Source: an uncultured Myxococcales bacterium (GTDB lineage Bacteria; Myxococcota_A; UBA9042; PWKZ01; CAYRCM01). Taken from it: a DNA stretch of 64,000 bases. Of this stretch, positions 14,671 to 44,400 are shown piece after piece. The position numbers and the translations under genes were made by a program. The DNA lies in the NCBI GenBank assembly GCA_964422715.1, contig CAYRCM010000003.1:15377-79376 (forward strand). The letters run 5' to 3'. The notes below the pieces were generated by a model. That model saw nothing but the letters and a program-made list of their open reading frames with translations, searched no databases and was not told where the DNA came from. Positions within the stretch are counted from its first letter, which is position 1. The number at the start of each line of letters is the position of its first letter.

Positions 14671-14715
14671 GAGCGCACCCTCCGGCGGCCGCGCCTGGTG
14701 CGCGGCCTTCCTGGC

Positions 14716-15231: not shown

Positions 15232-15240
15232 CGCCGTGCC

Positions 15241-16530
<1,290 letters not shown>

Positions 16531-16542
16531 GCTGGCCTCACT

Positions 16543-19430: not shown

Positions 19431-19493
19431 CGGGCAAGCGGGCCCGCCTTCTTCCTCCTGCGGCGTCGGTCCGCGGAGCACTGCGAGGCGTTC

Positions 19494-20642: not shown

Positions 20643-20775
20643 CGCCGCGCAAGGTGTGCCACGGGCTGTCGCCGCCCGAGGCAACGTTCACGACCGGCCG
20701 ACCGCCGCTCGGCGCGCACGCCGGCCCGCGGCGTAGCCCGCCGTGGTCCGCATCCGTGCCGCTCGGGACGGTCGA

Positions 20776-21540
20776 CTACGCCACGACTTCGATGAGGATG
20801 GCGGTCACGTTGTCTTTGCCGCCGTTTTCGCAGGCAGCGCGGATGAGGGCATCGCAGCAGGTCTTCAGGTCGCCCCGTTCGCGGGTGACGATCTCGAGGA
20901 TCTGCGGGTCGGGTACTTCCCCGGACAGACCGTCGGAGCACAACAAGTAGATGTCGCTCTGCTCAGGCTTCTCGCGGTGTGTGTCGACCTGCACCGTCTC
21001 TTTCATGCCCAAGGCTCGCACGATGATGTTCTTGTGCGGGAAGTTCTTCTCTTCCTCCGGCGTCATGGCCGTCATCTTCTTGTAGTCGTTCAGCAGCGAA
21101 TGATCCTCGGTGAGTTGATCGAGGGCCCCGTTGCGCACGCGGTAGGCCCGGCTGTCGCCCACGTGGCCCACCACGAGTTCGTCGTCGAGAAACTGCAACG
21201 TCACGATCGTGGTGCCCATGCCCTTGAAGCGGAGGTCGGACATGGCCTGCTCGAAAATGCGCAGGTTGGCGAGTTTGACGCCCGCCACCAGACGATTCTC
21301 TTCGTAGCCGAGCGCCTTGTCGCCCTTGAAGGGCCAGGTCAATTCCTTGTCGCGGGCCGTGTCCTCGAAGAACTCGCCGATGGTGTCGACCGCGATGCGG
21401 CTCGCCACCTCGCCGGACGAATGCCCGCCCATGCCGTCGGCCACGACGAACAGTTTCTCCTTGGGAACCAACTTGAGGCTGTCTTCGTTGTGGGTGCGCT
21501 TCATGCCCACGTGCGTGGTGCCGGCGTACAGAAGATTCAT
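20776..21540 (-). CDS. PP2C-family Ser/Thr protein phosphatase
   Basis: 254 aa with motifs GMKRTHNEDS, VADGMGGH and the C-terminal DNVT of PPM phosphatases. Confidence 0.9.
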   Translation of the reverse strand: MNLLYAGTTHVGMKRTHNEDSLKLVPKEKLFVVADGMGGHSSGEVASRIAVDTIGEFFEDTARDKELTWPFKGDKALGYEENRLVAGVKLANLRIFEQAMSDLRFKGMGTTIVTLQFLDDELVVGHVGDSRAYRVRNGALDQLTEDHSLLNDYKKMTAMTPEEEKNFPHKNIIVRALGMKETVQVDTHREKPEQSDIYLLCSDGLSGEVPDPQILEIVTRERGDLKTCCDALIRAACENGGKDNVTAILIEVVA

Positions 21541-21916
21541 CCCGCTCCATCCTTGTCAAGCGAGCGTTCGGGCGTCCTTATAGCCCCCAGCCGGCCCGCT
21601 CGTCAACGCACCCAAGCGCAGCCGGGTGGCCACGGAAGGGGCAACGACTCGATGCCACCCGGCGCACGGGCGGCCCGACGGGGATCCGCGGCCTCCGCGG
21701 CTCAGCGCTGAGCAATCATCATGCCAAGGCCCCGCTCGCCGGAACCTCCCTCCGCCGCCCGAAGGGACCGCGCCGAGGACTTGCCCAAGAACCGCGCTCC
21801 GCACTACCCTGCATCCGCGTCGGATCCCCGGCGGTCTCGGCGCGTCCGCTCGCGCGCCCTCGGTTTCCCCGCACGGGTTGCACTTCGGCGCGGGGGCTCG
21901 GGGCTTGGGGGCAATC

Positions 21917-24790
<2,874 letters not shown>

Positions 24791-24826: not shown

Positions 24827-26806
24827 ATGACCACGCGCCTCGGCCCATACACCCTCATCGAGCGCCTCGCCACCGGCGGTATGGCCGAGATCTTTCGCGC
24901 CAACCGAGAGGGCGAGGCCGGCTTCCAGAAGCCCTGCGTCGTCAAGCGCATCCTGCCGCACTTCGCCCAGGATCCGCAGTTCATCCACATGTTTCTCGAC
25001 GAGGCCCGGCTGGCGGCCCAACTCAACCACCCCAATATCGTTCAGATTTTCGAACTTGGCGGACACGACGGCACCTATTTCGTGGCCATGGAGTACGTCC
25101 AGGGCTGGCCGCTGTCGCGGGCTCTCAAAGTGCTCGCCGACAACGACCTCCGGATGCCCTTGCCCATCGGGGCCTGGATCGTCGCCAAGATGTGCGCCGG
25201 CCTCGAATACGCCCACGGCCTGCGCGACGCCAGCGGCGAGCCGCTCGGCCTCGTCCACCGCGACATCAGCCCCGACAACGTGCTCGTCACGGGGGCCGGC
25301 GAGGTCAAGATCATCGACTTCGGCATCGCCAAGGCCCGCGGCCGCGAGACCAAGACGGTCGCCGGCACCGTCAAAGGCAAGTTTCGCTACATGTCGCCCG
25401 AGCAGGTCACCGGGCGCCCCGTCGACCGGCGCTCCGACCTGTTTTCGCTCGGCATCGTGCTCTACGAGGTCACCACGCTCGGCCGGCCGTTCCTCGGCGA
25501 CAGCGACGTCATGACGGCCACGGCCATCGTGCGCGATGACCCCACCGTCCCGAGCGTCTACCTCGAAGGCTACCCGGTCAAACTCGAACGCATCATCCTC
25601 TCGGCGCTTTCCAAAGACCTCGATGCGCGCTATCAGAGCGCCGCCCTCATGCAGACCGACCTCGAAGACTACCTGCGTTCGACGGGTTCCTATCCGACCG
25701 AACGCGAAGTCGGCGAGTACATGGCGCGGCTCATGTCGGGCGAAGCACCCGACCTCGCCTACTTGCGGGCGGTGCCCCTGGGCCTCGAACACCCCGCTCC
25801 GGCCCCGGCAGCACCGGCCGCGGCCGTTGTCGAGACCGCTACGCGGCCGCAGGCCCGTGCCGCACAGGCCGTTGTGCCGCCGCCGGCCGCCGCCGCGCCC
25901 GCCAACGCGGGGTCCGCCGACGTCGCGCCAAGTCCTCGGGCGGCACAACGCGGGACGCGCAAAGTCCTGTTTGCCGCCCTCGCCCTCGTGCTCGCGGGAG
26001 CGGTGGCGTTCGGGCTCTACATGCTCCTGCGCCCCGACGCTCCCTCGACGGGTACCGCCGTGCTGCCGGCGCTGTCCCTGTCGTCCGACGCCGGCTCGTC
26101 GGCCGCCGATCCGTCGCGCTCCCTGCCGCGGCCCGACGCCGTTGGCACGCGCCAAACCCCGCCGCCAGCCGACGCCGCCGCGCCCTCCGCGGCGCCTGGC
26201 GAAGTCCGTCCGGCATCGCCGGTGCCGCCTCAGCCGGCATCCGATGCGGTCGGGGCTTCCGGCCAGCCGTCCCCGTTTCTCCGTCTGCGCTGGGGCCGCG
26301 ACGCCACGGGCGCCGCGCCGACGCCAGCCGATGCGGGCGCTGCGGCCGTGGCCCCGTCACCCGACGCGACGGCTCCCGCTCCGCCTCCAGCCCAGGCCTG
26401 GCTCGTGATCCCTCAACTGCGCCCAGCCACGACGGTTTCGCTCGACGGTCAGCCCCAGGGTGCGCCGCCGTTGCGCCTCAAGGTGGCCCCGGGGCCTCAC
26501 GACGTCGCTTTTGCGCAGGGTGGCAGGACGGTCGTCGAGCATGTCGAGGTCGCCGCCGGCAGCGAGGCCACGGTCACCCCGCATTTCCCGGCGGCCGCCA
26601 CCGACAACATCGGCTACCTCGTCGTGGCCGCCCCACGGTCGTTGCCCCTCACCATCTCGTCGGTCCGCCGACCGCGGGTCAATCATCCGCTGCCCCTCAA
26701 ACCCGGGGTCTACAGCATCCGCTACCTCAGTCCATCAACCAAGCGTTGGAATAGCCTGACCGCCAAGGTCCGCTCAGGGCGTACGACCACGGTGCGAGCG
26801 TTCTGA
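24827..26806 (+). CDS. Hanks-type Ser/Thr protein kinase with Ala/Pro-rich linker and C-terminal beta-rich domain
   Basis: GxGxxG-like loop (LATGGMAEIF), VVK, catalytic HRDISPDNVL, DFG and SPE motifs. Roughly 300 aa of low-complexity and C-terminal region. Confidence 0.9.
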   Translation: MTTRLGPYTLIERLATGGMAEIFRANREGEAGFQKPCVVKRILPHFAQDPQFIHMFLDEARLAAQLNHPNIVQIFELGGHDGTYFVAMEYVQGWPLSRALKVLADNDLRMPLPIGAWIVAKMCAGLEYAHGLRDASGEPLGLVHRDISPDNVLVTGAGEVKIIDFGIAKARGRETKTVAGTVKGKFRYMSPEQVTGRPVDRRSDLFSLGIVLYEVTTLGRPFLGDSDVMTATAIVRDDPTVPSVYLEGYPVKLERIILSALSKDLDARYQSAALMQTDLEDYLRSTGSYPTEREVGEYMARLMSGEAPDLAYLRAVPLGLEHPAPAPAAPAAAVVETATRPQARAAQAVVPPPAAAAPANAGSADVAPSPRAAQRGTRKVLFAALALVLAGAVAFGLYMLLRPDAPSTGTAVLPALSLSSDAGSSAADPSRSLPRPDAVGTRQTPPPADAAAPSAAPGEVRPASPVPPQPASDAVGASGQPSPFLRLRWGRDATGAAPTPADAGAAAVAPSPDATAPAPPPAQAWLVIPQLRPATTVSLDGQPQGAPPLRLKVAPGPHDVAFAQGGRTVVEHVEVAAGSEATVTPHFPAAATDNIGYLVVAAPRSLPLTISSVRRPRVNHPLPLKPGVYSIRYLSPSTKRWNSLTAKVRSGRTTTVRAF

Positions 26807-26910
26807 GCGGCGAGTCGCTGCCCGCCGAGGCCCCGGCCACGTCCGGCTGGCAGCCGGGGCCCGATTGTGCTAGAGCTCGGGCCACGTTCTTTCCGGGCGA
26901 GGAGGATGCC

Positions 26911-27375
26911 ATGCGACATCTAGCAACAGCAGCCCTCACACTCTGCTGCGTCTGGGCCGCCGCGGCGTGCGGCGACGACGGCGACGACCCCTCGCGGCAG
27001 GACGACCGTCGTTCCGCTGCGAAACCCATGGATATGGGCGGTATCGCCGACGACAAGGTCGACCCCGCAGCTGGTGACTCGACTGACTGGAAGAAATTCA
27101 GCCTCGTCACCGACGACACGGTCACGGTTACAGTGTACTTCGACAACCCGACGGTCGATGCCAAGGTCGCCCTGCGCGACGCCTTCGGCTCGGACCTCAA
27201 GAAGTGCGTCAAAGAAGCCGACAAGGATTGCGTGCTTACCATCGATCTCAAAGGGGGAACGTACTTCGTGGGGGTCGAAGCCGGCGAGCAGGCATCGGTC
27301 TACACTGTTTCGGTGGAATTGGGTAGCGGAAAGATTGCAGGTACGGGCGGTTACGACGACCCGCGGCCCGAGTAG
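26911..27375 (+). CDS. Small secreted lipoprotein (hypothetical)
   Basis: 154 aa. Signal peptide ending in a lipobox-like AAAC-G. Acidic mature protein. Sits immediately upstream of the CIS-like operon promoter. Confidence 0.55.
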   Translation: MRHLATAALTLCCVWAAAACGDDGDDPSRQDDRRSAAKPMDMGGIADDKVDPAAGDSTDWKKFSLVTDDTVTVTVYFDNPTVDAKVALRDAFGSDLKKCVKEADKDCVLTIDLKGGTYFVGVEAGEQASVYTVSVELGSGKIAGTGGYDDPRPE

Positions 27376-27602: not shown

Positions 27603-28190
27603 ATGAGCCAATTTGAGGTCATCCGCGACATCGGAAAGACCCTCGAAGACTTGCTCAAGGAAGCGTTCAAGAGCAAGGGTTTCACCACAGTCAACGTCAG
27701 CACCGACAAGCCCAAGAAAGACAATATCAAGAATCTTCCAACGGTTTCCTGCTACCTCTACCATGTCTCCTTCGCCCCGGGCTACAAGGAGCGCACGCAG
27801 GCGCTCGTCTCCACCCAGGACCGCGAGGGCAACATCGTCGAGTTCTACCAGGACGCCCCGGTCTACCTTTGGGCGCACTTCATCATCTCGGTCTGGGGCA
27901 ATTCCCCAGCCGAAGAAAACTTGCTTCTCGGGCTCGCCGTGAAGACCTTCCTCGAGAACCCCATTCTCACGGGGGAGGTGCTCCGCGGCGATTCCTTCTA
28001 CCCCGACGACATGCTCAACATCTACCCGAATCTACAGACAGATTTCAACGACGTCTTGACGTTCTGGAGAAGCCTCAACGAGGAACTGCGTCCGTCCATC
28101 TATTACTATGTCAAATTCCGGATCGAGTCCGACCGGAAGAGTACCGAGGTCAAGCGGGTTACTGGCAAGGATTTTGCTATCCGCCGATGA
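27603..28190 (+). CDS. DUF4255-like (Pvc16/Afp16 N-terminal-like) tail cap/terminator protein candidate
   Basis: 195-aa first gene of the operon, directly preceding a sheath gene, as in many eCIS loci. The assignment rests on context and size; the family membership was not verified. Confidence 0.45.
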   Translation: MSQFEVIRDIGKTLEDLLKEAFKSKGFTTVNVSTDKPKKDNIKNLPTVSCYLYHVSFAPGYKERTQALVSTQDREGNIVEFYQDAPVYLWAHFIISVWGNSPAEENLLLGLAVKTFLENPILTGEVLRGDSFYPDDMLNIYPNLQTDFNDVLTFWRSLNEELRPSIYYYVKFRIESDRKSTEVKRVTGKDFAIRR

Positions 28191-30063: not shown

Positions 30064-30435
30064 ATGGCTTTCAAGACCGAGTTTGAATTCACACTTCCGA
30101 AGGGTTACGTCGACAAGGACGGCAACCTGCATCGCAAGGGCGTGATGCGGCTGGCCACGGCCAAGGACGAAATTCTCCCCCTCCAGGACTACCGCGTCCA
30201 GGCCAATCGCGCGTATCTCGTCATCATTTTGCTTTCGCGCGTCATTACGAAACTCGGCGATCTGAGCTCCGTCAACCCCTCCGTCATCGAGGAGCTGTTC
30301 TCCGCCGACCTGGCCTACCTCCAGGACTTCTACCGCCGAATCAACGAGGAAGGCACGTCGAAGATCAAGGTGAGTTGTCCGGCGTGCAGCCACAAGTTCG
30401 AGGTCGATCTCGGAGCTGACCTGGGGGAATCATAA
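30064..30435 (+). CDS. Small tail-assembly-chaperone-like protein (P2 gpE / lambda gpG analog) with C-terminal CxxC
   Basis: 123-aa ORF between the tube and the next structural genes. Ends …SCPACSHKFEVDLGADLGES. The downstream ORF overlaps in the -1 frame. Confidence 0.5.
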   Translation: MAFKTEFEFTLPKGYVDKDGNLHRKGVMRLATAKDEILPLQDYRVQANRAYLVIILLSRVITKLGDLSSVNPSVIEELFSADLAYLQDFYRRINEEGTSKIKVSCPACSHKFEVDLGADLGES

Positions 30436-30593
30436 GCTACCCCCTGGACCGCTTGTACCAGGAGGTAGCCTACATCGCCTATCATTTCCATTGGTCGCCC
30501 GACGACGTCTTGGAGATGGAACACAAGGAGCGCCAGGTCTGGGTGCGCGAGATCTCCGAGATCAACAAGGAAATCAACCGTTCCCGCAGATGA
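30420..30593 (+). CDS. Putative -1 frameshift extension (E'/GT-like) of the upstream chaperone ORF; no independent start or RBS
   Basis: The frame opens at 30420, 16 nt before the upstream stop, across a CTGGGGGAA run. It encodes …YPLDRLYQEVAYIAYHFHWSPDDVLEMEHKERQVWVREISEINKEINRSRR. It has no ATG or GTG with an RBS; only a weak TTG at 30453. Confidence 0.35.
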   Translation, partial: PGGIISYPLDRLYQEVAYIAYHFHWSPDDVLEMEHKERQVWVREISEINKEINRSRR

Positions 30594-32464: not shown

Positions 32465-32956
32465 ATGCCAGCTGGGGCCAGGAATCAGGACTACCAGGTC
32501 AAGTTCAACTTCAACGTCGAAGTCGACGGCATCACCGCCGGACGATTCGTTGAGGCAGGCCCTCTCAAATGGAGCACGGAAGCCGAATCCGTGCGTGAGG
32601 GTGGCAACAACGCGGGCAAGGTCAACTTGGTGGGCCCGGGTACCTTCGACAAACTGTCCCTCAAACGTGGGTACCTCATCGCAAATACAGAGTTCTTCCA
32701 GTGGATGAAGGACATCCATGACCCGGCCAAAGGCAAGGGCTCGGGGTTGCGGCACAACTTCGACCTCGTCGTCCTCGATGACTCCGGGGCCGAAGTGGGG
32801 CGCTACAGCTTCTTCAACGCCTTTGTGTCCAACTATTCGGTCGACGCCTTCAACGCCAAGACGGGCGAGATTGTCATCGAGTCCGTTGAGTTGACCTATG
32901 ACTACTTCACGGTGAAGGGCTCGGGCGGCAGCGGGTTCACTGGGTCCGAACTGTGA
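32465..32956 (+). CDS. Tail tube protein (gp19/Hcp-like), paralog 2
   Basis: 163 aa. …YQVKFNFNVEVDGITAGRFVEAGPL… parallels tube 1. AAGGAG Shine-Dalgarno sequence. Confidence 0.8.
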   Translation: MPAGARNQDYQVKFNFNVEVDGITAGRFVEAGPLKWSTEAESVREGGNNAGKVNLVGPGTFDKLSLKRGYLIANTEFFQWMKDIHDPAKGKGSGLRHNFDLVVLDDSGAEVGRYSFFNAFVSNYSVDAFNAKTGEIVIESVELTYDYFTVKGSGGSGFTGSEL

Positions 32957-33004: not shown

Positions 33005-36000
33005 ATGGACGAATCCAAAACGCTGGGCACCAAACGCGACGGCACGAGCCCGAGGCTCGTCGCCGACCTCGTGAACCGCTTCGGGAGCGAGCACGCCGAC
33101 GTAACCCCCGATGACTCCAAGGCCTTGGCGGGCATGGGGGAGTGGCTGGGCCACCTCCAGTCGCGGAGCGACCCGAGCCACGTGGTCCTGTCCGGCGGCT
33201 GGACCCCGGCGGGCGGGCGCGACGTTCAAGAGCGTATCGCCTCCCGCTACCGTCTGGCCGAGCGGCCGCCGATTGCGACGGGGATTGCCGCGTTTCTTGG
33301 TGGGCTGCGCTGGACTTCTGCGCCCGAGCAGCGGTTTTTCGAATGGGGGGGCTTCGACGATTTCGAGTCCCTGATGCTCGAACCCGAACTGCCCGAGGGG
33401 GCCGACGAACTTGGAGACACATCGCCCCGACCCGCAGCGCGCGCAGGGGGATTGCGTGCGGGGCGGAAGGGCCGCGGACAGGCGAGCGTCCAGTCTCGCT
33501 CCGCGAAGGCGGGTGAGGTTGCCCGGTTGTCAGTGGCCACGCCGCCGCCCGGCGCTCCAATGGCCGCCGGCAACCTTCTCAGCGGCGAGTCGCTCGCCCC
33601 GCCGGAACCGCTGCGCGCGGTTTCTGCGGGCGCAGCACCGGTCGTCCTCGACGGCGTCCCGCTCAGCCCGCGCACACTGCCTGCCTTGACGGCAGCGCTT
33701 GCGCGGGTTTCCGAGGTCTTCCAAGGGCCGGCTGCCGCGACCGCGCGGCGTTTCAGCCCGGCTGCCTTTTCGGCGGCGCTCAAGGTCGTGTCGTTGACCT
33801 CGGCTGATGCGCCGAGCCAAAGGCGCCATGGTGCGCCGCCGCAGGCGACAACCGACCCGCGCAGCCAAGCCGCGGCGCAGGGCGTCTCACCGCGCGCGGT
33901 CGGCTTCCACCGCGGGATGGAACTGGGGACTGTAGTCCCCGGATCGGGCACGGGTGACCCCACTCCGGGGACCCCAGAAACCCGAATTTCTGCCAGGGCC
34001 CAGAAACGACGGGTACCCGCGACGTCCGCCGCCGACCCGACGATGCGACTCGGCCGGTACGGCTTCGCGCGCGACTTCAGTCTGACGCCGGCCGAAACCT
34101 TCTCGTCCTCCGTCATTCTGCGCGCCTTGGACGAGGCGCCCGACGCCGGACCTGACGCGTTTTCGCCGGGAGCAGGGTACGTCCAGCCGGCGGCTCCGGC
34201 CGCGCAGTCAACGGCGCTTGTTGGCGACAACGACATTGTCTACGTGTCTCTCGAAGACCTGGATCCGGCCGTACTTGGCGGCGGCGGCGAGGCCGAGGCC
34301 AGTTTGCGTGTGCCGACGGGCCTGCGTACGTTTGCCCGACTGCCCGCCACGGTGCGCGAGCGGCTCAGCAGCCATGCCTTGACTGTGACCGAGGCCGTTC
34401 GTCTCCAGCAGGCCCTGGCCCGCTCCGCGTCCTCGCCGGCCGGTCGACCGCTGCGGTCCCCGCACGCGCCGAGCGCCGCCGCGCAGGCGGCCGTCGTGCC
34501 AGCCGCCGCGGTGCGCGACCGGGTCGATGTGCAGACTCCGCCGTCTCTGCCGGCGGCGCTCCGCAACGCTGTGGCCGCGCGCACGCTGCCCGCGGAGGCG
34601 CGGTTTGGCTCGAGCGAGGTCGAGCCCGCGCAGCCGCGCCCCATTGGGCAGCCGGCTGTGCTCGGGCGTCCCGAACTGCTCGCCAGCCAGGTTCGCGCTC
34701 TTCGGGCTGCACTGCAGCCGAGGACGCTGCGGGCGCCGTTGGTTGGGCGTGACGCGCCGTCGGCGACGCCGGGCACCCGACCGGGAGCCAGGACGCGCGC
34801 AGCGAGCATCGAGTCGTGGATCCACGGGCTGGCCGCGATCCCGGGCGTGGAATCCGGCGCGTCCCCCACGGTGGGTCTTGGCGGTTCCCTGACGTCCGCC
34901 GCCAACGAGGCGGCGGGGCCGCGCCAGGTGCGGGCCGCGACCGAGGACGTTGGCCAGGGTCGCGTCGTCCCTGCCGGCATTCTCGATGGGGAATCCTTCA
35001 GCTGGTCCGGGTTCGACTTTCTTGCCCCGCAGGCCGAGGAAGCGGTCGTGCGCGACGAACAGCGTGTCGTTGCGGCCGCCCTTGCGGCAGCAGCGGGCGC
35101 GTCGCCGACTGGGGCGCAGCGTGCGGCCCAGCGCAGTACGTCGAAGCAGCCCCGACGGGCTCGGACCACTCGGGTGGCAGCCGCCCTTGAGCCCACGGCT
35201 TCTCTGGTCGGCGGCGTCGCTCCGGCCCTGCCCCCGACCGTCTCCGAGGCGCTGGCGGGGCTGACGGGCACCCGGCCCACCATCGCGGCGGGCGTTCGCC
35301 TGCGGGCCGACGTCGAAGAGGTAGGACGCGGCATCCGCCGCGCGGCCCCGGCCCGTGCGCAGGCCCCGGTCCCCGGCACCGCCGACGTTGCTCCGGCCAC
35401 GGCGACCGGTCGTCCGACCGAGGCCGCGTCCTCCGCGTTGACCGCGGAGACGCCGGAACTTGCGGCCTATTCCTACCTGCCGCGACTCGTGGCGCACCTT
35501 GGCGTCCGTCAGGCCGCAGCCGTGCTGCCGGCCCTGCGTACCGCGGAGGCGCGTCGCACCCTCACCGCCCGGACACCCGAACAGATCTCACGTCTCGTCG
35601 GTCCCGAACGGACCTACGCGGAGGGCTGGCTCTCCTCTGCCGTCGAATTGACGCGCGAGTGGCTTCGCCCCGTCGGGCCGGAGGGCCCCGCGGCGCTTCC
35701 AGAAGACGCCCGCGGGGTCGAGTCGGCCGCCGCATCGACGCGGCAGCGCGGGTCGGCCACGGCGGTGGGTGCAAGCGTGGCCGCCGATGCCCGCCCCCGG
35801 CGAGCTTCGGCCGAAGTCAGCGCGCCGGCGTTTGGGTTGCATCCCGGCTCCACGGGGGAGCCCGTGGGGCATGAGCGAACCGGTGGCGCAGTGGCGAGTG
35901 AGCGCGGGCGCTACTGGGGCGGCTTCGCGCCGTTGCGCAGTCGGGGCGCCAGTGGGGTGGCCGACGTCCTTCGTCAGGAGGCCCTCGCGATGGCCCTTGC

Positions 36001-37879
36001 GAGCCGTCACGCTGCCACTTCGGGCGACACCCCCTCGGCATCGAGCCCTTGGGACCGTGCCTGGGCAGGCGATCTGCTGACACTCGTCGAGCTCGAAGAG
36101 GCTCTTCGGACAGGCCCACCCGCTGGACAGGCCGAGGTCGGCGGTGATCCTGCCGCCGAAACGCGAATCGGCCGCGCCGGCGCCCGGGCCGGGGTCGAAC
36201 CGCGGAGGACGGTAGATGTGCCGGTCGACCGAGCAACAGCGGCCGGCGCCCCAAGTGGCCGCGCCGCGTTGGGCGCGGTCGAACTCGGCCGGGCCCTGAC
36301 GGCAGCGCGCCAGGTCCAGGAGCGGATGGGGGCGCCGACCCCTGTGGTGCAGCGCGTCGCTGCGGGGCTGCTGGGCCGTGAGACGGTCGGGCTTCGCCTC
36401 TCGACAGCGGTCGACGGGAGACTGACCGAGACCGAACCGGCCAACGACGTCGTGGCTCGGGCCGAGTCTGCGGCGAGGCCGCTCGGCGGGCCCGCATTCA
36501 CCGGTTTGGCGGATCGGCTCGAACGCTTGTGGGGGGGCGCTGCAGAGTCCCGCACCTCCCTCACGGGCCTTCCCGATGGCACGACCGAAGCATTCTGGGC
36601 CGAGGACGGCGCCCTCGTGCTGCCCGAACCCTCCGAGGCCGAAGCGTCGTCTCCGGCCGGTGGCGAGACGGGCGGCCTCCCGACGGCCCTCGCGACTCGG
36701 GCGGCAGCGCGGCGTGGTGCGCGCCCGGGGCGTCTCAGCGTTTCTCGGGGCGGCGCCGCCGACCAGCCGCTCACGGCTATCGAACGCGTCGCCGCGCGGC
36801 GTCTGGCGGCAGCCGCCAGCGGTGCTTTGCGGCGTCAGCCGCAGGCGGGCGGGCCGGCGGAACCCGGGCGATCGACAACCGCGTACCCGACCCTCATGGC
36901 CGTTCTCGCCGATCGGCCCGACGTTGCCGCCCGGGTTCTGCGTGCGGTTGGCGGCCAGGCCGATACGGCCGCGCAACTGCTGCGGCTCGAACCTGCAAGG
37001 CTGCCTCGGGCCGTTCGCGATGCGCTCACCCAGGCCGGCATCGACTGGGCCGCGCCTGCGCCCGCCGGAGGTGGCGCGGTGGCTGCCGAAGCCACCCGGC
37101 GTGCCAGCGCGGCGGTTCTCGACATCGAAACCATGATCGCGCTCGCCCTTGCCGACACAACGGGCGGGGTGGGCGACCCGATCAAGAGTGGCTTGGCCGA
37201 ACGGGCCCTCGGCGAAATCCCTGCCGCTTGGGCCCACGCCAACGACGCCATGGTGCAGCGGTTGGTCGAGCGGCTCACGCGCAGTCGGGCCGTCCGGCCT
37301 CTGGACATTGGCTTCGCCGACATGGAGCCGGTCGCCGGCGACACCGCCGCCACCTCTACAGAAGTGCCTGAGGCAGGCGGTGGGGTCACGCTGGTGCAGC
37401 CGGGTGCGGCGCCGACCCCGTCCGAGAATGAGCCGGCGCGGCGCACGCGTCGTGACGTCGTGGCGCCTGAGGGTCCTGGGGCCCCGATGACGGCGGCCCT
37501 CGACGCTGTCGACATGTCGCCGGTCACGTGGGACCTGATTCAGACCCGGCTCAGCAGCGCGCCCGTGTCGCACGCGCGTCCGGCCAACGTGTCTGGGGTG
37601 GCCCAGGCCATGTTGAGCAACCGCGTTCTGACCCGGTCTACACTGCCGCTCGTGGCTCCGGCCGTTGCCCAGGTCGCGGCGCAGGCGCAACTCAGCGCGT
37701 CCGGCGGTCCGACAGCCGACGCCCAGCCCACGCAGACGCAGGCCGCTGCTGGCGATGGCGCCGGTGCGGGCCTCGAAAAGCAACCCAAGCTCGATATGGA
37801 GCGTATCGCAAAGGAAATTGCGTCCAGGATTTCTCTGCGTGCGAGACGAGAGAATGATAGGAGAGGGACATGGCTCTGA
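33005..37879 (+). CDS. Giant (1624 aa) Ala/Pro/Arg-rich low-complexity protein in the tape-measure position (TMP candidate)
   Basis: 4.9-kb open frame, far beyond the random expectation of about 50 codons at 70 % GC. Codirectional with the operon, with an RBS before the ATG and a 10-nt overlap with the downstream gene. The antisense ORFs are Arg/Gly-rich artifacts. No recognisable catalytic motifs. Confidence 0.6.
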   Translation: MDESKTLGTKRDGTSPRLVADLVNRFGSEHADVTPDDSKALAGMGEWLGHLQSRSDPSHVVLSGGWTPAGGRDVQERIASRYRLAERPPIATGIAAFLGGLRWTSAPEQRFFEWGGFDDFESLMLEPELPEGADELGDTSPRPAARAGGLRAGRKGRGQASVQSRSAKAGEVARLSVATPPPGAPMAAGNLLSGESLAPPEPLRAVSAGAAPVVLDGVPLSPRTLPALTAALARVSEVFQGPAAATARRFSPAAFSAALKVVSLTSADAPSQRRHGAPPQATTDPRSQAAAQGVSPRAVGFHRGMELGTVVPGSGTGDPTPGTPETRISARAQKRRVPATSAADPTMRLGRYGFARDFSLTPAETFSSSVILRALDEAPDAGPDAFSPGAGYVQPAAPAAQSTALVGDNDIVYVSLEDLDPAVLGGGGEAEASLRVPTGLRTFARLPATVRERLSSHALTVTEAVRLQQALARSASSPAGRPLRSPHAPSAAAQAAVVPAAAVRDRVDVQTPPSLPAALRNAVAARTLPAEARFGSSEVEPAQPRPIGQPAVLGRPELLASQVRALRAALQPRTLRAPLVGRDAPSATPGTRPGARTRAASIESWIHGLAAIPGVESGASPTVGLGGSLTSAANEAAGPRQVRAATEDVGQGRVVPAGILDGESFSWSGFDFLAPQAEEAVVRDEQRVVAAALAAAAGASPTGAQRAAQRSTSKQPRRARTTRVAAALEPTASLVGGVAPALPPTVSEALAGLTGTRPTIAAGVRLRADVEEVGRGIRRAAPARAQAPVPGTADVAPATATGRPTEAASSALTAETPELAAYSYLPRLVAHLGVRQAAAVLPALRTAEARRTLTARTPEQISRLVGPERTYAEGWLSSAVELTREWLRPVGPEGPAALPEDARGVESAAASTRQRGSATAVGASVAADARPRRASAEVSAPAFGLHPGSTGEPVGHERTGGAVASERGRYWGGFAPLRSRGASGVADVLRQEALAMALASRHAATSGDTPSASSPWDRAWAGDLLTLVELEEALRTGPPAGQAEVGGDPAAETRIGRAGARAGVEPRRTVDVPVDRATAAGAPSGRAALGAVELGRALTAARQVQERMGAPTPVVQRVAAGLLGRETVGLRLSTAVDGRLTETEPANDVVARAESAARPLGGPAFTGLADRLERLWGGAAESRTSLTGLPDGTTEAFWAEDGALVLPEPSEAEASSPAGGETGGLPTALATRAAARRGARPGRLSVSRGGAADQPLTAIERVAARRLAAAASGALRRQPQAGGPAEPGRSTTAYPTLMAVLADRPDVAARVLRAVGGQADTAAQLLRLEPARLPRAVRDALTQAGIDWAAPAPAGGGAVAAEATRRASAAVLDIETMIALALADTTGGVGDPIKSGLAERALGEIPAAWAHANDAMVQRLVERLTRSRAVRPLDIGFADMEPVAGDTAATSTEVPEAGGGVTLVQPGAAPTPSENEPARRTRRDVVAPEGPGAPMTAALDAVDMSPVTWDLIQTRLSSAPVSHARPANVSGVAQAMLSNRVLTRSTLPLVAPAVAQVAAQAQLSASGGPTADAQPTQTQAAAGDGAGAGLEKQPKLDMERIAKEIASRISLRARRENDRRGTWL

Positions 37880-38580
37880 AAAACGACATCATGGGCCAGG
37901 CGTACGGCGGAGAACTGGCCCGGGCCAAGCTCAAGGTCATCGCCGAGCATGCGGGGTCGATTTCGGGTCCGACGGAACTGGAGTTGCCGATCAACCCGAA
38001 CAAGGTGACCGTCTCGAAGGAGGTCAACCGGGGTTCCGACTCTCCGGCCGTGGGCTCCGACACGAGGCAGCGCCAGGAAACGGGCAGCGAACCTCGCACG
38101 GTGACTCTCCATGACGTGATCTTCGATACGTACGAGGAGCGCGACGACGTCCGCACCAAGTACATCGACACGTTGGAGAAGTTTGCGAGCGTCGACAAGA
38201 ACCTGCACCAGCGACCGACCCTGATGCTCGACTGGGGTGCGTTCAAGACGACGTATGAAAGTGGGGGCAAGCTGCTCGTCGAAATCTCCAAGTTCGACGT
38301 GACCTACACGATGTTCCTGCGCGACGCCACCCCGGTGCGGTGCCGCACGACCATCGTGCTCAAAGAGGTCACCGACCCGAAGGAGAAGGCGTCCGAGATG
38401 CAGTCGCCCGACCACGCGAAGCTGCACACCGTCATTCGCGGCGACACGCTCCAGGCCCTGTCCTTCAAGGAGTACGACGATCCCCGGGAATGGCGCCGCA
38501 TTGCGGATGCCAACAACCTGGACGATCCGATGCAGCTCGAGCCCGGGACGAAACTGTTGATCCCGCCCATCCTCAAGTGA
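37870..38580 (+). CDS. LysM-domain tail-tube-initiator/baseplate protein (Afp7 / Mu gp43-like)
   Basis: 236 aa with a C-terminal LysM (…HTVIRGDTLQALSFKEYDDPREWRRIADANNLDDPMQLEPGTKLLIPP). In this position, before a GpD hub gene, it matches CIS and Mu-like tail loci. Confidence 0.7.
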   Translation: MALKNDIMGQAYGGELARAKLKVIAEHAGSISGPTELELPINPNKVTVSKEVNRGSDSPAVGSDTRQRQETGSEPRTVTLHDVIFDTYEERDDVRTKYIDTLEKFASVDKNLHQRPTLMLDWGAFKTTYESGGKLLVEISKFDVTYTMFLRDATPVRCRTTIVLKEVTDPKEKASEMQSPDHAKLHTVIRGDTLQALSFKEYDDPREWRRIADANNLDDPMQLEPGTKLLIPPILK

Positions 38581-38615: not shown

Positions 38616-39809
38616 ATGGCAAGCGGACAGACCGGAAAAGAAGTCTCCATCTCCATCAAGATCGATGGCAAGGAAACGTTGACCGGCTCGGTTGGGGGGT
38701 CCGAACCCCTCATCGACGGTGGGCCGATCCCGTACCTGCGGGTGGAGAAGTACCTGAACGCACCGGACAGCTGTGTGGTGCAGTTCAGCCAAATCAAAGA
38801 GGGCAAGATCGACATTCTCGATCAGGACTTCGAGGGCAAGTCCATCGTCATCGAGGCGGGTATCGGCCGCGGCAGTCGCGGGCCCCTGTTCGTTGGCGAG
38901 ATCGCGTATGTCGAGCCCCACTTCACCACGGGGGAAGAGCCTCCGTATACCGAGATCGGGGCGTACGACCACTCGCACCGCCTCACCCGCGGCACGCGTT
39001 CCCGAACCTGGGGCGACGGGGTCCAGGCGAGTGAGAAGGTCAGCGACGTCGCCAGCAACGTCATCTCGTCCAGCATGAGCCAGAAGGGCGATGCGACCGA
39101 CCAACTCTCGATCGACAAGGTCGACGCGTCGACGCCTCAGCACGCCTACGTCGCCCAGGTCAACCAGAACGACTACCAGTTCATGCGGCGGCTGGGCTAC
39201 GCAATGGGACGCGTGACCGACTCGGACTCGACCGCCGACGACAAGAAAGTCCGATTCGCCAAGATCGACCCATCGGCGGGCGAGGTCGTGACGATTTGCC
39301 GCGAGGCAGCCGGACAGGATCAGTCGCAGGTCCTTGCGACGAACATGCGTCTCGGTCTCAGCGCCGTTCGGCAGGTCGTCAAAGTCATCGTGCGCGGCTG
39401 GAACCAGAAAGAAAAGAAGAACATCGTCGGTATTGCTGAATCGAGCGACATCAGTTTCGACGGCACGCCGGGCTGGCAGCGTTCGGCGCAGGCGTTCTAC
39501 GGCAGCGCGAGCGCCGGGCGCGTCTACGAAGTGGTCAACCAGCCCGTCGACAGCAAGGAAGAAGCCGATGCCGTGGCGCAGGCTATCTTCAACGGGCTGT
39601 CGCTCGACTTCGTTACCGGCGAGGCCACGTTCCCCGGGCGACCTGGCATCAATCCGGGCGACATGGCCAAGGTTGACGGCAAGTACGGCGGACGTTTCGG
39701 TGGCAAGAAATTCCTCATCACGGGGGTTATCCATACCATCGACCGCTCCAACGGGTTCCTGACAACCCTCCAACTCGCGCGCAACGCCATCGGCGATCCC
39801 ACCGCCTAG
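38616..39809 (+). CDS. Baseplate hub protein, phage late control GpD / gp27 / VgrG-N-like
   Basis: 397 aa. …QNDYQFMRRLGYAMG… matches the Phage_GPD core. Has no gp5-like beta-helix spike extension. Confidence 0.7.
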   Translation: MASGQTGKEVSISIKIDGKETLTGSVGGSEPLIDGGPIPYLRVEKYLNAPDSCVVQFSQIKEGKIDILDQDFEGKSIVIEAGIGRGSRGPLFVGEIAYVEPHFTTGEEPPYTEIGAYDHSHRLTRGTRSRTWGDGVQASEKVSDVASNVISSSMSQKGDATDQLSIDKVDASTPQHAYVAQVNQNDYQFMRRLGYAMGRVTDSDSTADDKKVRFAKIDPSAGEVVTICREAAGQDQSQVLATNMRLGLSAVRQVVKVIVRGWNQKEKKNIVGIAESSDISFDGTPGWQRSAQAFYGSASAGRVYEVVNQPVDSKEEADAVAQAIFNGLSLDFVTGEATFPGRPGINPGDMAKVDGKYGGRFGGKKFLITGVIHTIDRSNGFLTTLQLARNAIGDPTA

Positions 39810-40225: not shown

Positions 40226-41431
40226 ATGACGCACCGTCTCGCCTTCGCCGCGCTGTTCTTTGCGAGCACTCTGTTGCATGCCGGTCTGCGGGCCGACGAG
40301 CCGGCTCCCACCCCCTTCCCGGGGAGCGACGCCGGGGCGCCCCGGAGCACGTGGCAACTCTACCCCGAGTACGAGCACGGCATGCTGCGCTTCGAACGCG
40401 GCGAGTTTGCCGTCTCACTCGGAATGCGGCTTCAGACGCTGGTGTCGGTTTGGAACGGCGACGAGGCCTTGCTCGACGAAGGCGACCTCATGGAAGTGCC
40501 GGGGTTCCGGCTGCGGCGCACGCGCATCACCCTTGATGGTCAATTCATCGATGGCCTGACGTTCGGCTTGGGTGCAGAACTCTTCGACCAGGAAGAGACC
40601 GACGGGCCGTTGCTCGACGCCTGGCTCGACTATACGCCCACGCACTACATCGGGGTCCGGTTGGGCGCCCACAAGGTGCCCTACTCGGCGGCACGGCTGC
40701 ATCCGGCGCTCAACCTGGCTTTCGTCGAACGAGGCCTGGCCACGCGCGCCATGGCGCCCGACCGGGTGGCGGGGGCCACGCTGCACTCGACTCCGTGGCA
40801 AGACAGGCTCGCGCTGCAGTTGGGGGTCTACAACGGCATCGAGCGCAGATCCGGGTCGGCCTATCGTGGCTGGGAGGGGCTTGGCACGAGCCTGGGCAAC
40901 CGATTCGAACGACTGCTCGTGGCCGCGCGGCTTGACTTCGAGCCGCTCGGTCCGGTCGGGCCCGAAGAACTCGACCAGCACAAGACGACGTCCCCCTTGT
41001 TCGCGGTGGGCGGTGGCTTCATCTACAGCCCGGCGAAGACCGTGACCATGGTCGGGGCAGCGGGCTCGCTGCACTTCAAGTGGTACGGCTTCAGCCTGTT
41101 CAGCGAAGTGCTCTATCAGCGCGAGTGGCCCGAACAGCAACCCGACACCCTCAACGTGCTGCCTCACCGCACCGAGCGCCTCACGTTCGTCGGACAGGTC
41201 GGCTACACGATCCTGCGCGACCTGCTTGCGCTCGCGTTCCAAGTCGAGTGGCTCGACCTCAACATGGACCTCGAAGACAACCAGGACGAGATCATCCTGA
41301 GCGGGGTCATCAACGCGTGGGTCGTGCGCGACCTCCTGAAGGGCCAAGTCCAGTACAGCCACCGCGAAGAACTGCATGGCGTGTCACGCGCCAACGACGC
41401 GGTCTACCTGCAGGTTCAGCTCGGCTTCTAG
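40226..41431 (+). CDS. Outer-membrane beta-barrel porin-like protein (OprO/P-like candidate)
   Basis: Signal peptide (AFAALFFASTLLHAGLRA). Alternating amphipathic beta-strand pattern. C-terminal …VYLQVQLGF ends in an aromatic residue, as outer-membrane proteins do. Confidence 0.45.
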   Translation: MTHRLAFAALFFASTLLHAGLRADEPAPTPFPGSDAGAPRSTWQLYPEYEHGMLRFERGEFAVSLGMRLQTLVSVWNGDEALLDEGDLMEVPGFRLRRTRITLDGQFIDGLTFGLGAELFDQEETDGPLLDAWLDYTPTHYIGVRLGAHKVPYSAARLHPALNLAFVERGLATRAMAPDRVAGATLHSTPWQDRLALQLGVYNGIERRSGSAYRGWEGLGTSLGNRFERLLVAARLDFEPLGPVGPEELDQHKTTSPLFAVGGGFIYSPAKTVTMVGAAGSLHFKWYGFSLFSEVLYQREWPEQQPDTLNVLPHRTERLTFVGQVGYTILRDLLALAFQVEWLDLNMDLEDNQDEIILSGVINAWVVRDLLKGQVQYSHREELHGVSRANDAVYLQVQLGF

Positions 41432-41446: not shown

Positions 41447-44400
41447 ATGATCGGGGGCATGGTCCGACGGTTGACCTGGGCGGGACTCATCCTCGCCTGG
41501 GCAGCCACCTCGCCGGGCTGCAACAACAACGAACGCACGCTCCAGGCGAAGCGCATCGAGCGCGAAGACGAACTCATCGGAGGCCCGCTGGCCAAGGGCC
41601 AGATCGGCGACTTCCTGCTCGAAAACGACAAGGTCCGGGTCGTCATCACGGCCACGGGGCACTCGTGGGAAGTCGGCCTCTTCAGCGGCAGCCTCATCGA
41701 CGCCGACCTGCGCCGGCCCGAGCGGTCCTTTGTGGCGGCTGGCGGGCTCGACCAGTTTGCCGAGCTGTTTCCCACCGTGAATCTCGTCACGGCCAACCCC
41801 AATGCCCCCGTGCGCGACCTCGTCGCGGCCCCGGCCGGGGTCCCCATGTGGGCGCCCGACGGCTCGGGTCAGGTTACGAACGAGACACGGCAGCTGCGGG
41901 TTGTCGACGAGCACGTGAGCGGGGTCTGGATCGAGAGCGACGGCTCGGACGGCACCGAGGCCGCCGTGGTCGCCGAAGGGCGCGGCGCCTTCCTTTTCGA
42001 GGCGCTCGGCTTGCTCCAGAGCCCGGAACTCTCGGCGTTCGTGAAGAACCTGAAAGTTGGGTTCGACTTCCGGACGACGTATGCCGTCCGGCCGGGCGAG
42101 TCTTGGGTGCGCATGCGCACGACCATCCGCTACAGCCCGAGCGACGTGCCCGCCGGCTGTCCCGGTCTGCCGGGCGACGACTGCCCCCTCGCCTGTCCGG
42201 CGGGCTACGAAACCGAATCCGTACCGGGAACCGAGGACGCCGCAACCGGCGAATGGAGCGAACTCGACTGTCCGACGTGCCGCTGTACCGTCGCCGGGAG
42301 CCAGGACTGGCAGCGTGAAGCCTGCGCCAACGCGCCCGTTTTTCGCCCCGACCCGGCCGACCCCACGACCTGGCATCGCTTCTGCCACGTGCCGGGCCAA
42401 CCGACCGTTCCATGCACCGACTACGAGGACCCAGCGGCTTGCGAATGTGGCTGCCTCAAGAGCGATTTTGGCGTGCAGGGCGACTGCAGCGCCTCCGGCG
42501 GCTACCGCTTCGAGGAAATCGAGGTCCCGAAGGAAGGCGGCGAGCCGGGCGAAGTCCGCCGCGTGTTCTGTCCGGTCTGCGCGTGCGACGGCAGCGACGA
42601 CCTGCCGCTGTACACCGAGAGCACGAGCATCTTCAACGACATCATCGGCGACCTGCCGTTCATCAACCCACGTCGCTGGCAACCGGGGATGATCGCTGGC
42701 GATTTCCTCTTCTTCGGCAAAGAATGCAACGTGTTTGCACCGGGGCTCGGCTACGACGAAGACCGCCGCATCTTCGAAAACACCTGGGAAGGCATCGGCA
42801 CCATCTCCAACCCGCTCTGCACCGACTATGTGGCCGCCGTCGGCGACCGCGTGTCGTACGGCTACTTCGCCTACGATCCCACACTGAACGTCGACGAACC
42901 GATCGACTCGGCCCGCTGTCCGACGAAACGGCTGGCACTCGTCGGGCTCAACTACCGGCCGCAGCTCTGGGACGAGGGCTCGCAGACGTTCACGGACATC
43001 TTCGACCGGCACCAGCGTCGCCGGGCGCGCGCTGGCATCCGGCAGGCGCTCGTCGACGATTTCGGCGTGACCGACACGGGCGTGGCCAGGTCGTTGCTCA
43101 CGGCCTTGCGCGTCGAACGCACGCCGCTCGTGCTCCGCACGCTCGAAACCCACTGCTACAACGGCAAGGATGACGACGCCGACGGCGTTCGCGACTGCGA
43201 AGACACCGACTGCGCGGGCGCCACGTGCGACTTCCGCTACGAAGAGTGCGAGGGCAAAGACCCGTGTCCCGCAATCGAAGACCCCCCCGCCGATTGCGAT
43301 CGCACCGGCGACAGCCGTTGTGATGGCTCCGACCTGGCGATTCAAGCCGCCATCGACGCCTTCGACGCGGCGCTCGGCGTCGCCGTCGTGGCCGAATCCG
43401 TGTGCACCGACGGCCTCGACGACGACGGCGATGGGCTCACCGACTGCGACGACGGTGACTGCGGCAGCGGAGCGGGGGGCTGCGAAGTCGGAACTGCCGA
43501 CGATACCTGCAACGCCCGCGGCTGCCGGAGCGGGGAGGCCGACTGCCTTCGAACGGGCGACGACCCAGCGTGCTGCCTCAACGGGGCTGACGACGACGGT
43601 GACGGGGCGGTTGACTGCGACGACGACAACTGCGGCGTCGAGCCGGCCTGCCAGACTCCCGTGGCCTCGGCCGAAGACCTCCTCACGGTGGGCTTCATCC
43701 CGGCGCCGGAGTGTCAACAGCCGAAGCTGCTCATCCCCCTGTTCACGAACAGTGCCACGGCGGTCATCACGCACGGCAAGCGCTGTGCCACGAGCCCGCT
43801 CTACGGCGATACGTGTCAGGGGGAGCGCTCGCTGAGCTACGAGCGCTTCTTCCTGATCGGCGAAGGCGATGTCGCGTCCATCCTCGACAGCGTGTACACG
43901 CTGCGCGGACAGGCCACCGGCACGCTGCGCGGGGCCGTGCTCGAAGCCGGCACCATGCGTCCCGTGCCGCACGCCGACGTTTTCGTACTGCGACTTCCCG
44001 TGGCCGCTCCCGCGTCGGCCGCGGCCGAGGGCAAGGCGGTCGAACCGAGCGAAGACCAACAGAACGCCGACTTCCTGCGCTACGGCTTCGCCTGGCGCGA
44101 CCTCATGGACGTTCGCGATCCCTTCGACCGCAACAATCCGGTCACGTACGACATGCTCGTGCGCGCCAACGACATCGCGTTCGGCAACATGGGGTTCGTG
44201 ACCCAGATGCAGTGCGACCGGGGCAGCGACCCGCGGCTCGACGGCGACTTCCAGGGGCGCTTGCTGCCCGGCACCTACGCCGTGGTCGCGCGCGGGTCGG
44301 ACACGACGGTGTCGGCCCTCCAGATCGTCCAGGTGCGCTCAGGCCAAACGACCGACGTCTACCCGCTCGTGCCTCCGCCCGGCAAGGTCAACTACCGGGT

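Follow-up and report, generated by a model that had tools for sequence, protein, structure and literature searches.

A putative tape-measure-class protein with conserved terminal modules in a CIS-Sc-related injection-system cluster of a Myxococcota-type genome

The tape-measure proteins of phage tails, such as gpH of lambda and gpT of P2, are encoded by the largest open reading frame (ORF) of the tail module, located before the initiator and hub genes, and consist of conserved termini and a variable middle of long helices or coiled coils, in which length is kept over sequence. Among extracellular contractile injection systems (eCIS), Alg14, a 526-aa protein of a 120.6-nm particle (0.229 nm per residue), is experimentally a ruler; the eCIS-wide slope is 0.2156 nm per residue, and for the characterized tape measures, a middle made up nearly throughout of helices is predicted (bioRxiv 10.64898/2026.05.27.728243). 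Homologs of afp14 are reported to be generally absent from lineage II eCIS (PMC6899500). The Streptomyces contractile injection system CIS-Sc forms uniform 268-nm particles, although its authors state that a tape-measure gene is absent (PMC10066040; PMC12237407), and the extended particles of S. lividans measure ~300 nm (PMC13277306). Tme of S. davawensis, a tape-measure-related effector, is encoded by the largest ORF, immediately before the initiator and spike genes, is ~70% disordered, is defined by an N-terminal DUF4157 domain, and has predicted transmembrane helices and a C-terminal endonuclease (PMC11126660). Here, a 64,000-nucleotide stretch of DNA from an uncultured Myxococcales bacterium (contig CAYRCM010000003.1, positions 15,377 to 79,376; hereafter, the window) is analyzed, with a focus on a 1624-aa protein encoded by a single long ORF. 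This long ORF is assigned, with good confidence, to the tape-measure class of a CIS-Sc-related contractile injection system in a Myxococcota-type genome; that the protein would also act as a ruler is held with less confidence than its class. The protein represents a Pro/Gly-interrupted, hypervariable tape-measure variant with conserved terminal modules.

The long open reading frame and its syntenic family

The long ORF extends over 1624 codons, from an ATG at 33005 through a TGA at 37877-37879, which bears out the uninterrupted 4.9-kb frame described in the initial annotation. It is the sole frame without internal stops among the six frames across 33005-37879 (the other five contain 4-25 stops), and the longest stop-free stretches in 20 shuffles of the window are 340-527 codons. 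The start is unambiguous in that the frame opens just four codons before the ATG, and a GAGG lies ~10 nt 5' of this ATG. An identical ORF is found on a Logan contig of run SRR12133404, a different assembly whose reads are possibly shared with the deposited one. The contrast in GC content at third codon positions (GC3) is weaker in the long ORF, 0.78, than in the neighboring genes, 0.80-0.88, so the composition of the single sequence lends weak support to coding, and the case for coding rests on the family comparison.

Relatives of the long protein were found through synteny. The protein has no match in Pfam (E up to 1), NCBIfam, or PHROGs, isolated C termini of the family have none in Pfam (E up to 10), NCBIfam, or PHROGs, and a PDB profile search with the long protein returned only a designed helical repeat. 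In a word-indexed search, the full protein retrieved itself alone and the C-terminal 138 aa retrieved nothing; the word index was probably saturated by low-complexity words. Homologs of the adjacent tube initiator were aligned, and this alignment was used to retrieve 80 genomic loci, mostly from metagenome-assembled genomes (MAGs) of Myxococcota. A complete ORF ending at the initiator start is present in 51 Myxococcota-type loci, with lengths of 931-2129 aa and a median of 1493 aa. The length of 1624 aa had been counted correctly in the initial annotation, which expected a very long tail from it if the protein were a ruler; it is an ordinary length for the clade and not an outlier. Counterparts are also found in genomes of only 51-57% GC (L003, 1809 aa; L027, 1506 aa; L040, 1187 aa; L037, 1599 aa), at which chance ORFs of such length are implausible. 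As judged from these searches, the family is large and unannotated and belongs to no annotated tape-measure family. Several contigs that carry the Myxococcota-type cluster (L032, L037, L041, L046, and L059; 57-66% GC) are titled "uncultured Enterobacteriaceae" or "Klebsiella pneumoniae", titles that are probably taxonomic mislabels of MAGs.

The two ends of the long protein constitute its conserved modules (Table 1). BLAST aligns just the last 80-130 residues, which pair end to end with the C termini of the counterparts. The C-terminal elements occur in the order PLVAPAxxAVAxxA, a variable linker, and an amphipathic helix, (V/I)D(L/I)(D/E)xLAxE(M/I)AxRIxRRxKRExERRG, which lies just ahead of the stop, at a distance of a few residues. 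The same C-terminal tail is present in haloarchaeal, Ignavibacteria, and Thermoanaerobaculia loci. An exhaustive phmmer search with the last 200 residues against 1.84 billion representative proteins gave 11 hits, all 11 at the hit protein's C-terminal end. A profile of the terminal 45 residues, from whose training the window was left out, gives the window ORF 23.3 bits, with the match at the extreme C terminus, and the other ORF fragments (n = 8,846) reach at most 8.3 bits. Both the conservation of the C terminus and its strictly terminal location are seen in the family, and the C-terminal helix with its ERRG motif is proposed to anchor the protein in the baseplate hub. The N-terminal ~130 residues are kept within subclades and close with the motif FDDFESLMLEPE in the window and ADLVQ(I/V)VLEEEE in relatives.

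The C-terminal motif also coincides with the start of the next gene. The ATG of the initiator at 37870 overlaps the end of the long ORF by 10 nt, and the Shine-Dalgarno sequence of the initiator lies within the R-R-G codons AGG AGA GGG of the long ORF. A stop/start overlap, mostly of 8 or 10 nt and with the Shine-Dalgarno sequence within the last codons, is observed in 53 of 63 loci; the overlap reported in the initial annotation is therefore correct, and the translational coupling of the long ORF and the initiator that was suggested with it is plausible. Family-wide, AGG and AGA make up 33% of the Arg codons in the last 14 codons compared with 7% elsewhere, an approximately fivefold difference. 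In the nonoverlapping loci (L015, L044, L038, L068, and L069), [DE]R.(R)G is retained with CGN codons, which argues that ER(R)G is kept at the protein level and rules out that the embedded ribosome-binding site alone accounts for the conservation of ERRG. Since the motif is kept where there is no overlap, R-R-G is a protein feature that was also recruited as a ribosome-binding site.

Divergence, length, and predicted structure of the center

The ratio of nonsynonymous to synonymous substitution rates (dN/dS) of the whole long ORF is 0.20-0.63 in pairs of related loci. By region, in close pairs, dN/dS is 0.22-0.28 for the center and 0-0.16 for the termini, with 0-0.16 for the N-terminal 100 residues. 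In three close pairs, 21 of 21 nucleotide insertions and deletions (indels) have lengths divisible by three. Together, dN/dS and the in-frame indels indicate that the long gene is coding throughout and that the constraint on its center is relaxed yet real. On the family comparison, the long ORF is a real, coding gene. A decaying or nonfunctional gene in a truncated, inactive cluster, with a frame kept open by the rarity of stops at 73% GC, would be in keeping with a window cluster that stops after the hub, with the weak GC3 contrast, and with ordinary searches that detect no homolog. Yet the frame of 1624 codons far exceeds the 527 codons reached in shuffles, all ten cluster genes in the window are intact, and the window retains the embedded ribosome-binding site, the 10-nt overlap, and the N- and C-terminal modules of the family, the C-terminal one detected by a profile that had not seen the window. 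With purifying selection and exclusively in-frame indels in the family in addition, decay is a highly improbable account of the gene.

The center of the long ORF diverges faster than its surroundings. In L006/L007, the nucleotide identity of the center is 49-65% compared with 85-97% in the flanking structural genes, and in L060/L062, the corresponding values are 70-86 and 93-99%. At the protein level, the long proteins of L006/L007 (1251 and 1250 aa) are 51% identical, whereas the initiators are 99% identical; the identities of long protein and initiator are 64 and 93% for L049/L050 (1351 and 1357 aa), 60 and 90% for L028/L031 (1194 and 1190 aa), and 56 and 92% for L058/L067 (1493 and 1505 aa). 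The apparent synonymous divergence of the center is greater than that of the termini and of the neighboring gene, with dS values of 0.45-1.05 for the center compared with 0.07-0.25 for the initiator gene (L006/L007, L047/L048, L060/L062, and L028/L035). This fast center may stem from misalignment, from a weaker codon bias, from recombination, or from local hypermutation at a raised mutation rate.

The length of the long protein is kept more closely than its sequence. Over 15 pairs, the lengths differ by 0.1-6%, and in those pairs whose initiators share 85% identity or more, the difference does not exceed 3.4%. The alignment offset drifts by tens of residues along the pairs and comes back to approximately zero, a drift that may in part be an alignment artifact. 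A neutral indel walk, with rates calibrated on reliably aligned pairs and extrapolated to more divergent ones, predicts length differences with medians of 38-45 aa, compared with 1-44 aa observed, and seven of seven pairs lie at or below the median (combined p = 0.012). These comparisons are suggestive of selection on the length of the long protein.

The amino acid composition of the long protein is biased (Ala 19.8, Arg 10.2, Gly 10.0, Pro 8.8, and Leu 8.6%), with 0.7% Lys and no Cys. The bias named in the initial annotation, Ala/Pro/Arg-rich, is real, and Ala/Arg/Gly/Pro-rich describes it better, given that Gly outnumbers Pro. Likewise, "low-complexity" is apt for the composition and not for repetitiveness: the DNA of the long ORF is without noteworthy tandem repeats, and no internal repeats were found in the 1624-aa protein. 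Repeats or misassembly as the source of the low complexity are thereby ruled out, and the bias is compositional rather than repetitive. Over 64 loci, the Ala + Pro + Arg + Gly fraction of the long ORF follows the flanking GC content (r = 0.85, slope 1.1), compared with r = 0.12 for the adjacent initiator protein. In the window, this fraction is 0.49 compared with 0.50 expected for random codons at the same base composition, and Ala alone is in clear excess (19.8% compared with 11.9% expected). Because the fraction tracks GC content, the richness in Ala, Gly, Pro, and Arg is best read as drift under weak constraint in a GC-rich (68-73%) genome, so that of the atypical composition claimed at first the bias stands and a special adaptation does not. 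As a caution, an odd residue makeup can be plain GC-driven drift in a weakly constrained spacer.

With respect to structure, Pro and Gly together make up 18.8% of the long protein, only 16% of the residues belong to stretches of 15 or more without Pro or Gly, and the prolines are spaced more evenly than by chance. AlphaFold2 was run on the single sequence in two halves, which gave mean predicted local distance difference test (pLDDT) scores of 39.9 and 37.9 and helix contents of 28 and 50% (~39% overall). The low-confidence model contains short helices, the longest of 28 residues, and no β structure; the helices at residues 16-99 are the best-scoring part (pLDDT 50-60), and a terminal helix is placed at residues 1598-1619. 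An amphipathic periodicity of 3.6-3.67 residues is weak (z = 2.5-2.8). No heptad or coiled-coil periodicity was detected in the long protein, and the hidden coiled-coil signal that the initial annotation had proposed to look for is thus absent. The expectation of disorder fares better in part: the Pro + Gly content and the pLDDT of 38-40 agree with it, whereas the short helices and a charge-hydropathy index on the "folded" side do not. As modeled, the long protein is best described as many short helices split by breakers, with no stable fold predicted, and differs both from classical coiled-coil tape measures and from polar disordered proteins. Similar to phage tape measures, it has conserved termini, a variable middle, and a length kept over sequence; in place of their long helices or coiled coils, its center is broken by Pro or Gly approximately every five residues. 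Compared with Alg14, the window protein is approximately three times longer, and its ~39% of short helices are predicted with low confidence.

The window protein shares with Tme its relative ORF length and its syntenic place just 5' of the baseplate genes. A tape-measure-derived cargo or effector, loaded into the tube lumen and ejected when the particle contracts, with a center shaped by its targets, would fit this slot and relative size, a center that diverges faster than the neighboring genes, and the 1243-aa DUF4157 protein with a similar C-terminal helix and ER.R.G that occupies the slot in Kitasatospora; it would also be compatible with a ruler function. The window protein has, however, no DUF4157 domain in Pfam and no HExxH motif, its maximum 19-residue Kyte-Doolittle score (1.36) is under the 1.6 threshold for a transmembrane-like segment, and it has no nuclease domain match, its C terminus being the helix and ERRG. 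The absence of DUF4157, nuclease, or other enzymatic domains extends to the family, and the one HExxH match among complete family members, HERTH at residue 693 of L037, is not N-terminal. A Tme-type effector identity by the defining domains was rejected, since DUF4157/HExxH, transmembrane helices, and nuclease are all absent; of the cargo or effector alternative raised initially, the shared slot and size persist. The dN/dS of 0.22-0.28 in the center gives no sign of positive selection, and a composition that follows GC content is as expected under weak constraint. A cargo or effector role is accordingly considered unlikely, and assignment to the tape-measure class is preferred.

The injection-system cluster, its chaperone, and the proposed assembly role

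The cluster in the window starts with the cap gene, followed by sheath 1, tube 1, the chaperone (overlapped by a DUF6760 ORF), sheath 2, tube 2, the long ORF, the initiator with LysM, and the hub (Table 1). Locus L083 repeats this gene order, including the 10-nt overlap, and its initiator and hub are ~40% identical to those of the window (hub 41.5%). In the PDB ranking, CIS-Sc comes first for the sheath and initiator, followed by AlgoCIS, the Anabaena system, the Photorhabdus virulence cassette (PVC), and the antifeeding prophage (AFP). On these homologies, the module is an eCIS/CIS-Sc-type injection system and not a Mu/P2 prophage. The initial annotation had placed the long ORF in the tape-measure slot of a Mu/P2-type module; the slot and the contractile tail-like module are confirmed, and the Mu/P2 type is replaced. 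In the window, in L083, and in the 51 loci, the long ORF is the largest ORF and lies between the tube and chaperone genes and the initiator and hub genes, as is the case for lambda gpH and P2 gpT, to which the window protein has no detectable sequence similarity. Unlike in phage, a sheath and a tube gene are found between the chaperone gene and the long ORF, and the module encodes an injection machine rather than a virion tail. Afp14 and Pvc14 (lineage I), set apart here by description only, are encoded after the fiber gene afp13 and before the ATPase gene afp15, whereas the long ORF in the window lies between tube 2 and the initiator and has no ATPase or fiber homolog adjoining.

Table 1. Features of the long ORF and its cluster in the window, and ORFs in the slot of four actinobacterial clusters (last four rows, positions within the named locus)
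Feature	Coordinates	Strand	Evidence or annotation
Cap / tail terminator (Pvc16_N, Afp16-like)	27603..28190	+	Pfam PF14065, E = 1.4e-22
Sheath protein 1, 382 aa	28302..29450	+	Pfam Phage_sheath_1/1C; nearest solved structure, Streptomyces CIS-Sc 8bky/9gtp, E = 3e-135
Tube protein 1, gp19-like, 143 aa	29528..29959	+	Pfam PF06841, E = 4e-38
Tail assembly chaperone homolog, 123 aa, best-conserved cluster protein	30064..30435	+	phrog_508
G GGG GAA, candidate slippery site for -1 frameshifting, two codons ahead of chaperone stop	30423..30429	+	
Extension in -1 frame, DUF6760	30426..30593	+	Pfam DUF6760, E = 1.2e-15; weak Phage_P2_GpE, E = 0.0013
Sheath protein 2, 587 aa	30607..32370	+	Pfam Phage_sheath_1/1C
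Tube protein 2, 163 aa, Cis5/Afp5 position	32465..32956	+	Pfam PF06841, E = 5.5e-30
Long ORF, putative tape-measure-class protein, 1624 aa	33005..37879	+	ORF; 51 syntenic counterparts; purifying selection; terminal-module profile, 23.3 bits
N-terminal module, residues 1-128, predicted helices, ending in hydrophobic-acidic FFEWGGFDDFESLMLEPE (111-128)	33005..33388	+	Family alignment
Hypervariable central spacer, ~residues 129-1547, short helices, Pro/Gly break approximately every 5 residues	33389..37645	+	
Hydrophobic motif PLVAPAVAQVAAQAQL, residues 1548-1563	37646..37693	+	Family consensus PLVAPAxxAVAxxA
C-terminal amphipathic helix and E/D-R-R-G motif KLDMERIAKEIASRISLRARRENDRRGTWL, residues 1595-1624	37787..37876	+	End-to-end C-terminal alignments
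Shine-Dalgarno sequence AGGAGAGGG of the initiator, within R-R-G codons of the long ORF	37859..37867	+	
Tube initiator, CIS_tube + LysM, Afp7/Cis7-like	37870..38580	+	Pfam PF19266, E = 1.2e-16; LysM; PDB 9gtp_P, E = 7e-19
Baseplate hub / spike base, gpD/VgrG-like, Afp8/Cis8 position	38616..39809	+	Pfam Phage_GPD, E = 2e-6, under gathering score
Streptomyces sp. NBC_01426 (L084), 1244 codons stop to stop, 1235 aa from first start	18760-22494		Last 255 aa alone listed as coding sequence
S. clavuligerus (L086), 1383-codon slot ORF	14789-18940		Just 71 aa listed
S. cattleyicolor pSCAT (L088), 908-codon slot ORF	12641-15367		Record without annotation
Kitasatospora (L087), 1243-aa DUF4157 protein in equivalent slot	14626-18357		

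The chaperone gene noted upstream of the long ORF in the initial annotation is borne out as a homolog of phrog_508 and carries a frameshift-like signal. The match to phrog_508, "tail assembly chaperone", has E = 1.7e-5 for the window protein and is found for 10 of 10 family members (best E = 5.4e-8); the match to Pfam Phage_TAC_7 is weak (E = 0.15), and a PDB profile search with the chaperone returned nothing. The chaperone is 87% identical to its counterpart in L083, compared with ~40% for the initiator and hub. Its last codons are CTG GGG GAA TCA TAA, and the DUF6760 homology continues in the -1 frame from the G-run. Past the TGA at 30417-30419, the -1 frame in the window contains neither ATG nor GTG, and the only candidate start, a TTG near 30452, is downstream of the onset of the homology; the open -1 stretch has no start codon in about half of the loci. 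The G-run, nearly always GGGGGAA, lies beside the zero-frame stop in 54 of 55 loci of several phyla and is found in Actinobacteria as well, and this slippery-like run uses the rare codons GGG and GAA in genomes of 65-75% GC. Based on these features, DUF6760 is predicted to be fused to the chaperone by -1 frameshifting, in which case the window cluster matches the arrangement of a chaperone and a -1 extension known from lambda G/GT and P2 E/E+E'. In Actinobacteria, a GTG overlaps the chaperone stop, so reinitiation is an alternative there; the corresponding codon is GTA or ATA in many Myxococcota loci, which excludes reinitiation in those. A tblastn search with the chaperone fusion against 50,697 phage records gave no match, and no description of DUF6760 or of frameshifted chaperones of contractile injection systems was found in the searchable literature.

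The assignment of the long ORF to the tape-measure class is thus based on its slot, its conserved termini and variable center, the preservation of length over sequence, and a dedicated chaperone homolog nearby, for which two products by -1 frameshifting are predicted. In the proposed mechanism, the chaperone and its frameshift-extended form would keep the long, weakly constrained center soluble. The conserved C-terminal helix and ERRG would dock in the complex of the initiator and hub, the products of the genes immediately 3', and the initiator would be translated in a coupled fashion, as suggested by the overlap and the embedded ribosome-binding site. The center would then thread the growing tube and serve as a spacer that depends mainly on its length and general character, and the N-terminal module would mark the point where the Pvc16-like cap ends polymerization. 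A protein of this length would correspond to a particle of ~244 nm at the 0.15 nm per residue of phage, or of 350-372 nm at the 0.2156-0.229 nm per residue of eCIS.

A structural or tether protein that is not a ruler, such as a scaffold, a plug, or a flexible linker whose C terminus binds the hub, would be consistent with the Pro/Gly-interrupted, low-confidence structure, which resembles flexible linkers, and with the cytoplasmic, membrane-associated systems that are the nearest relatives by sheath (PMC10066040; PMC12237407). The cluster encodes, however, the partner specific to tape measures, a tail-assembly chaperone, and offers no other candidate for length control, and the length of the long protein is kept more than its sequence, which together leave little probability for a tether.

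Several observations weigh against the tape-measure assignment. The protein resembles no PDB chain in sequence and none of the tape-measure models of Pfam, NCBIfam, or PHROGs, and in the low-confidence models, its center is without the long helix or coiled coil of characterized tape measures. A random-sign indel test on reliably aligned pairs showed no compensation (p = 0.17), and the significant result of the neutral walk depends on the extrapolated indel rates. Finally, the cluster has no gp25, baseplate J, Tail_P2_I, or ATPase gene in 64 kb, so that assembly would need genes located elsewhere.

This last point follows from the extent of the cluster, of which the hub is the last gene in the window. 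The baseplate proteins of L083 (gp25, a 994-aa baseplate protein, and Tail_P2_I) have no tblastn match in the 64-kb window, and homologs of PAAR, gp25, baseplate J, Tail_P2_I, and ATPase are found nowhere in it; the complete contiguous CIS-Sc cluster, with gp25, baseplate J/Cis11, Cis12, and ATPase, is therefore not present. Some MAGs contain two or three LysM-initiator loci (L034, L043, and L064; L011 and L039 are from the same assemblies), a few of which are without a long ORF before the initiator. Clusters that are split or share components may also explain the truncated cluster in the window. The two sheath (382 and 587 aa) and two tube paralogs per cluster are kept in related Myxococcota loci, and a single sheath gene is listed in the Streptomyces clusters examined.

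Slot ORFs of actinobacterial clusters and neighboring genes

The sheaths encoded on Streptomyces megaplasmids are 53-56% identical to the window sheath, and the gene order of the Streptomyces-type clusters is sheath, tube, chaperone, DUF6760, the slot, tube, LysM initiator, and VgrG. The slot thus comes right behind the chaperone pair and ahead of tube 2, as in the order canonical for phages, whereas the long ORF in the window follows sheath 2 and tube 2. Similar to the Myxococcota loci, the actinobacterial clusters contain the pair of chaperone and DUF6760 with GGGGGAA and a stop. The slot ORFs of L084, L086, L087, and L088 all close with an amphipathic helix followed by ER.R.G; their similarity to the Myxococcota-trained profile is modest, with scores of 16.2 (L086), 10.3 (L087, borderline), and 10.0 bits (L084), and the tail of L088 was judged by eye. 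The Streptomyces slot ORFs are Pro/Ala-rich and contain still more Pro (17-21%) than the window protein. At 72-80% GC, long chance ORFs occur in other frames too, and the actinobacterial slot ORFs are accordingly treated as candidates.

At 0.2156 nm per residue, lengths of 908-1383 aa would give 196-298 nm, in the range of the measured 268 nm and ~300 nm. The published mass-spectrometry table of S. coelicolor lists Sco4248 (Cis5) and Sco4251 and does not list Sco4249 and Sco4250. By synteny only, Sco4249 and Sco4250 are inferred to hold the DUF6760 and long-ORF positions, with SCO4249 as the slot. The gene tables examined miss or truncate the slot genes, with 255 of ~1235 codons listed in L084 and 71 codons in L086. 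For length control in the Streptomyces-type branch, the giant syntenic ORF with its putative C-terminal anchor is a concrete candidate.

More broadly, it is conceivable, and put forward as a tentative proposal, that the whole CIS-Sc-related branch, including Streptomyces, has its overlooked tape measure in this family: a largely nonhelical, Pro/Gly-interrupted ruler whose center drifts or is actively diversified, served by a frameshifted chaperone pair. If so, both the length-per-residue rule and the evolutionary regime would differ from those of classical helical tape measures. The terminal-module profile and the signature of chaperone and frameshift could be converted into family models. Tape-measure length is also of interest for eCIS engineering, where it tunes cargo capacity (bioRxiv 10.64898/2026.05.27.728243).

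Directly 5' of the cap gene in the window, 24827-27375 encodes a Ser/Thr kinase (weak PEGA match, E = 0.008) and a small PPC-domain protein, and FHA-domain proteins are encoded 3' of the cluster in L083. The kinase near the cap and the FHA proteins of L083 hint at phosphorylation-based regulation. On the 3' side of the hub, 416 bp of intergenic DNA precede a porin-like gene (40226-41431), next to which an unrelated gene (41447-47377) encodes a Cys-rich lipoprotein of 1976 aa that contains a CehA/McbA metallohydrolase domain.

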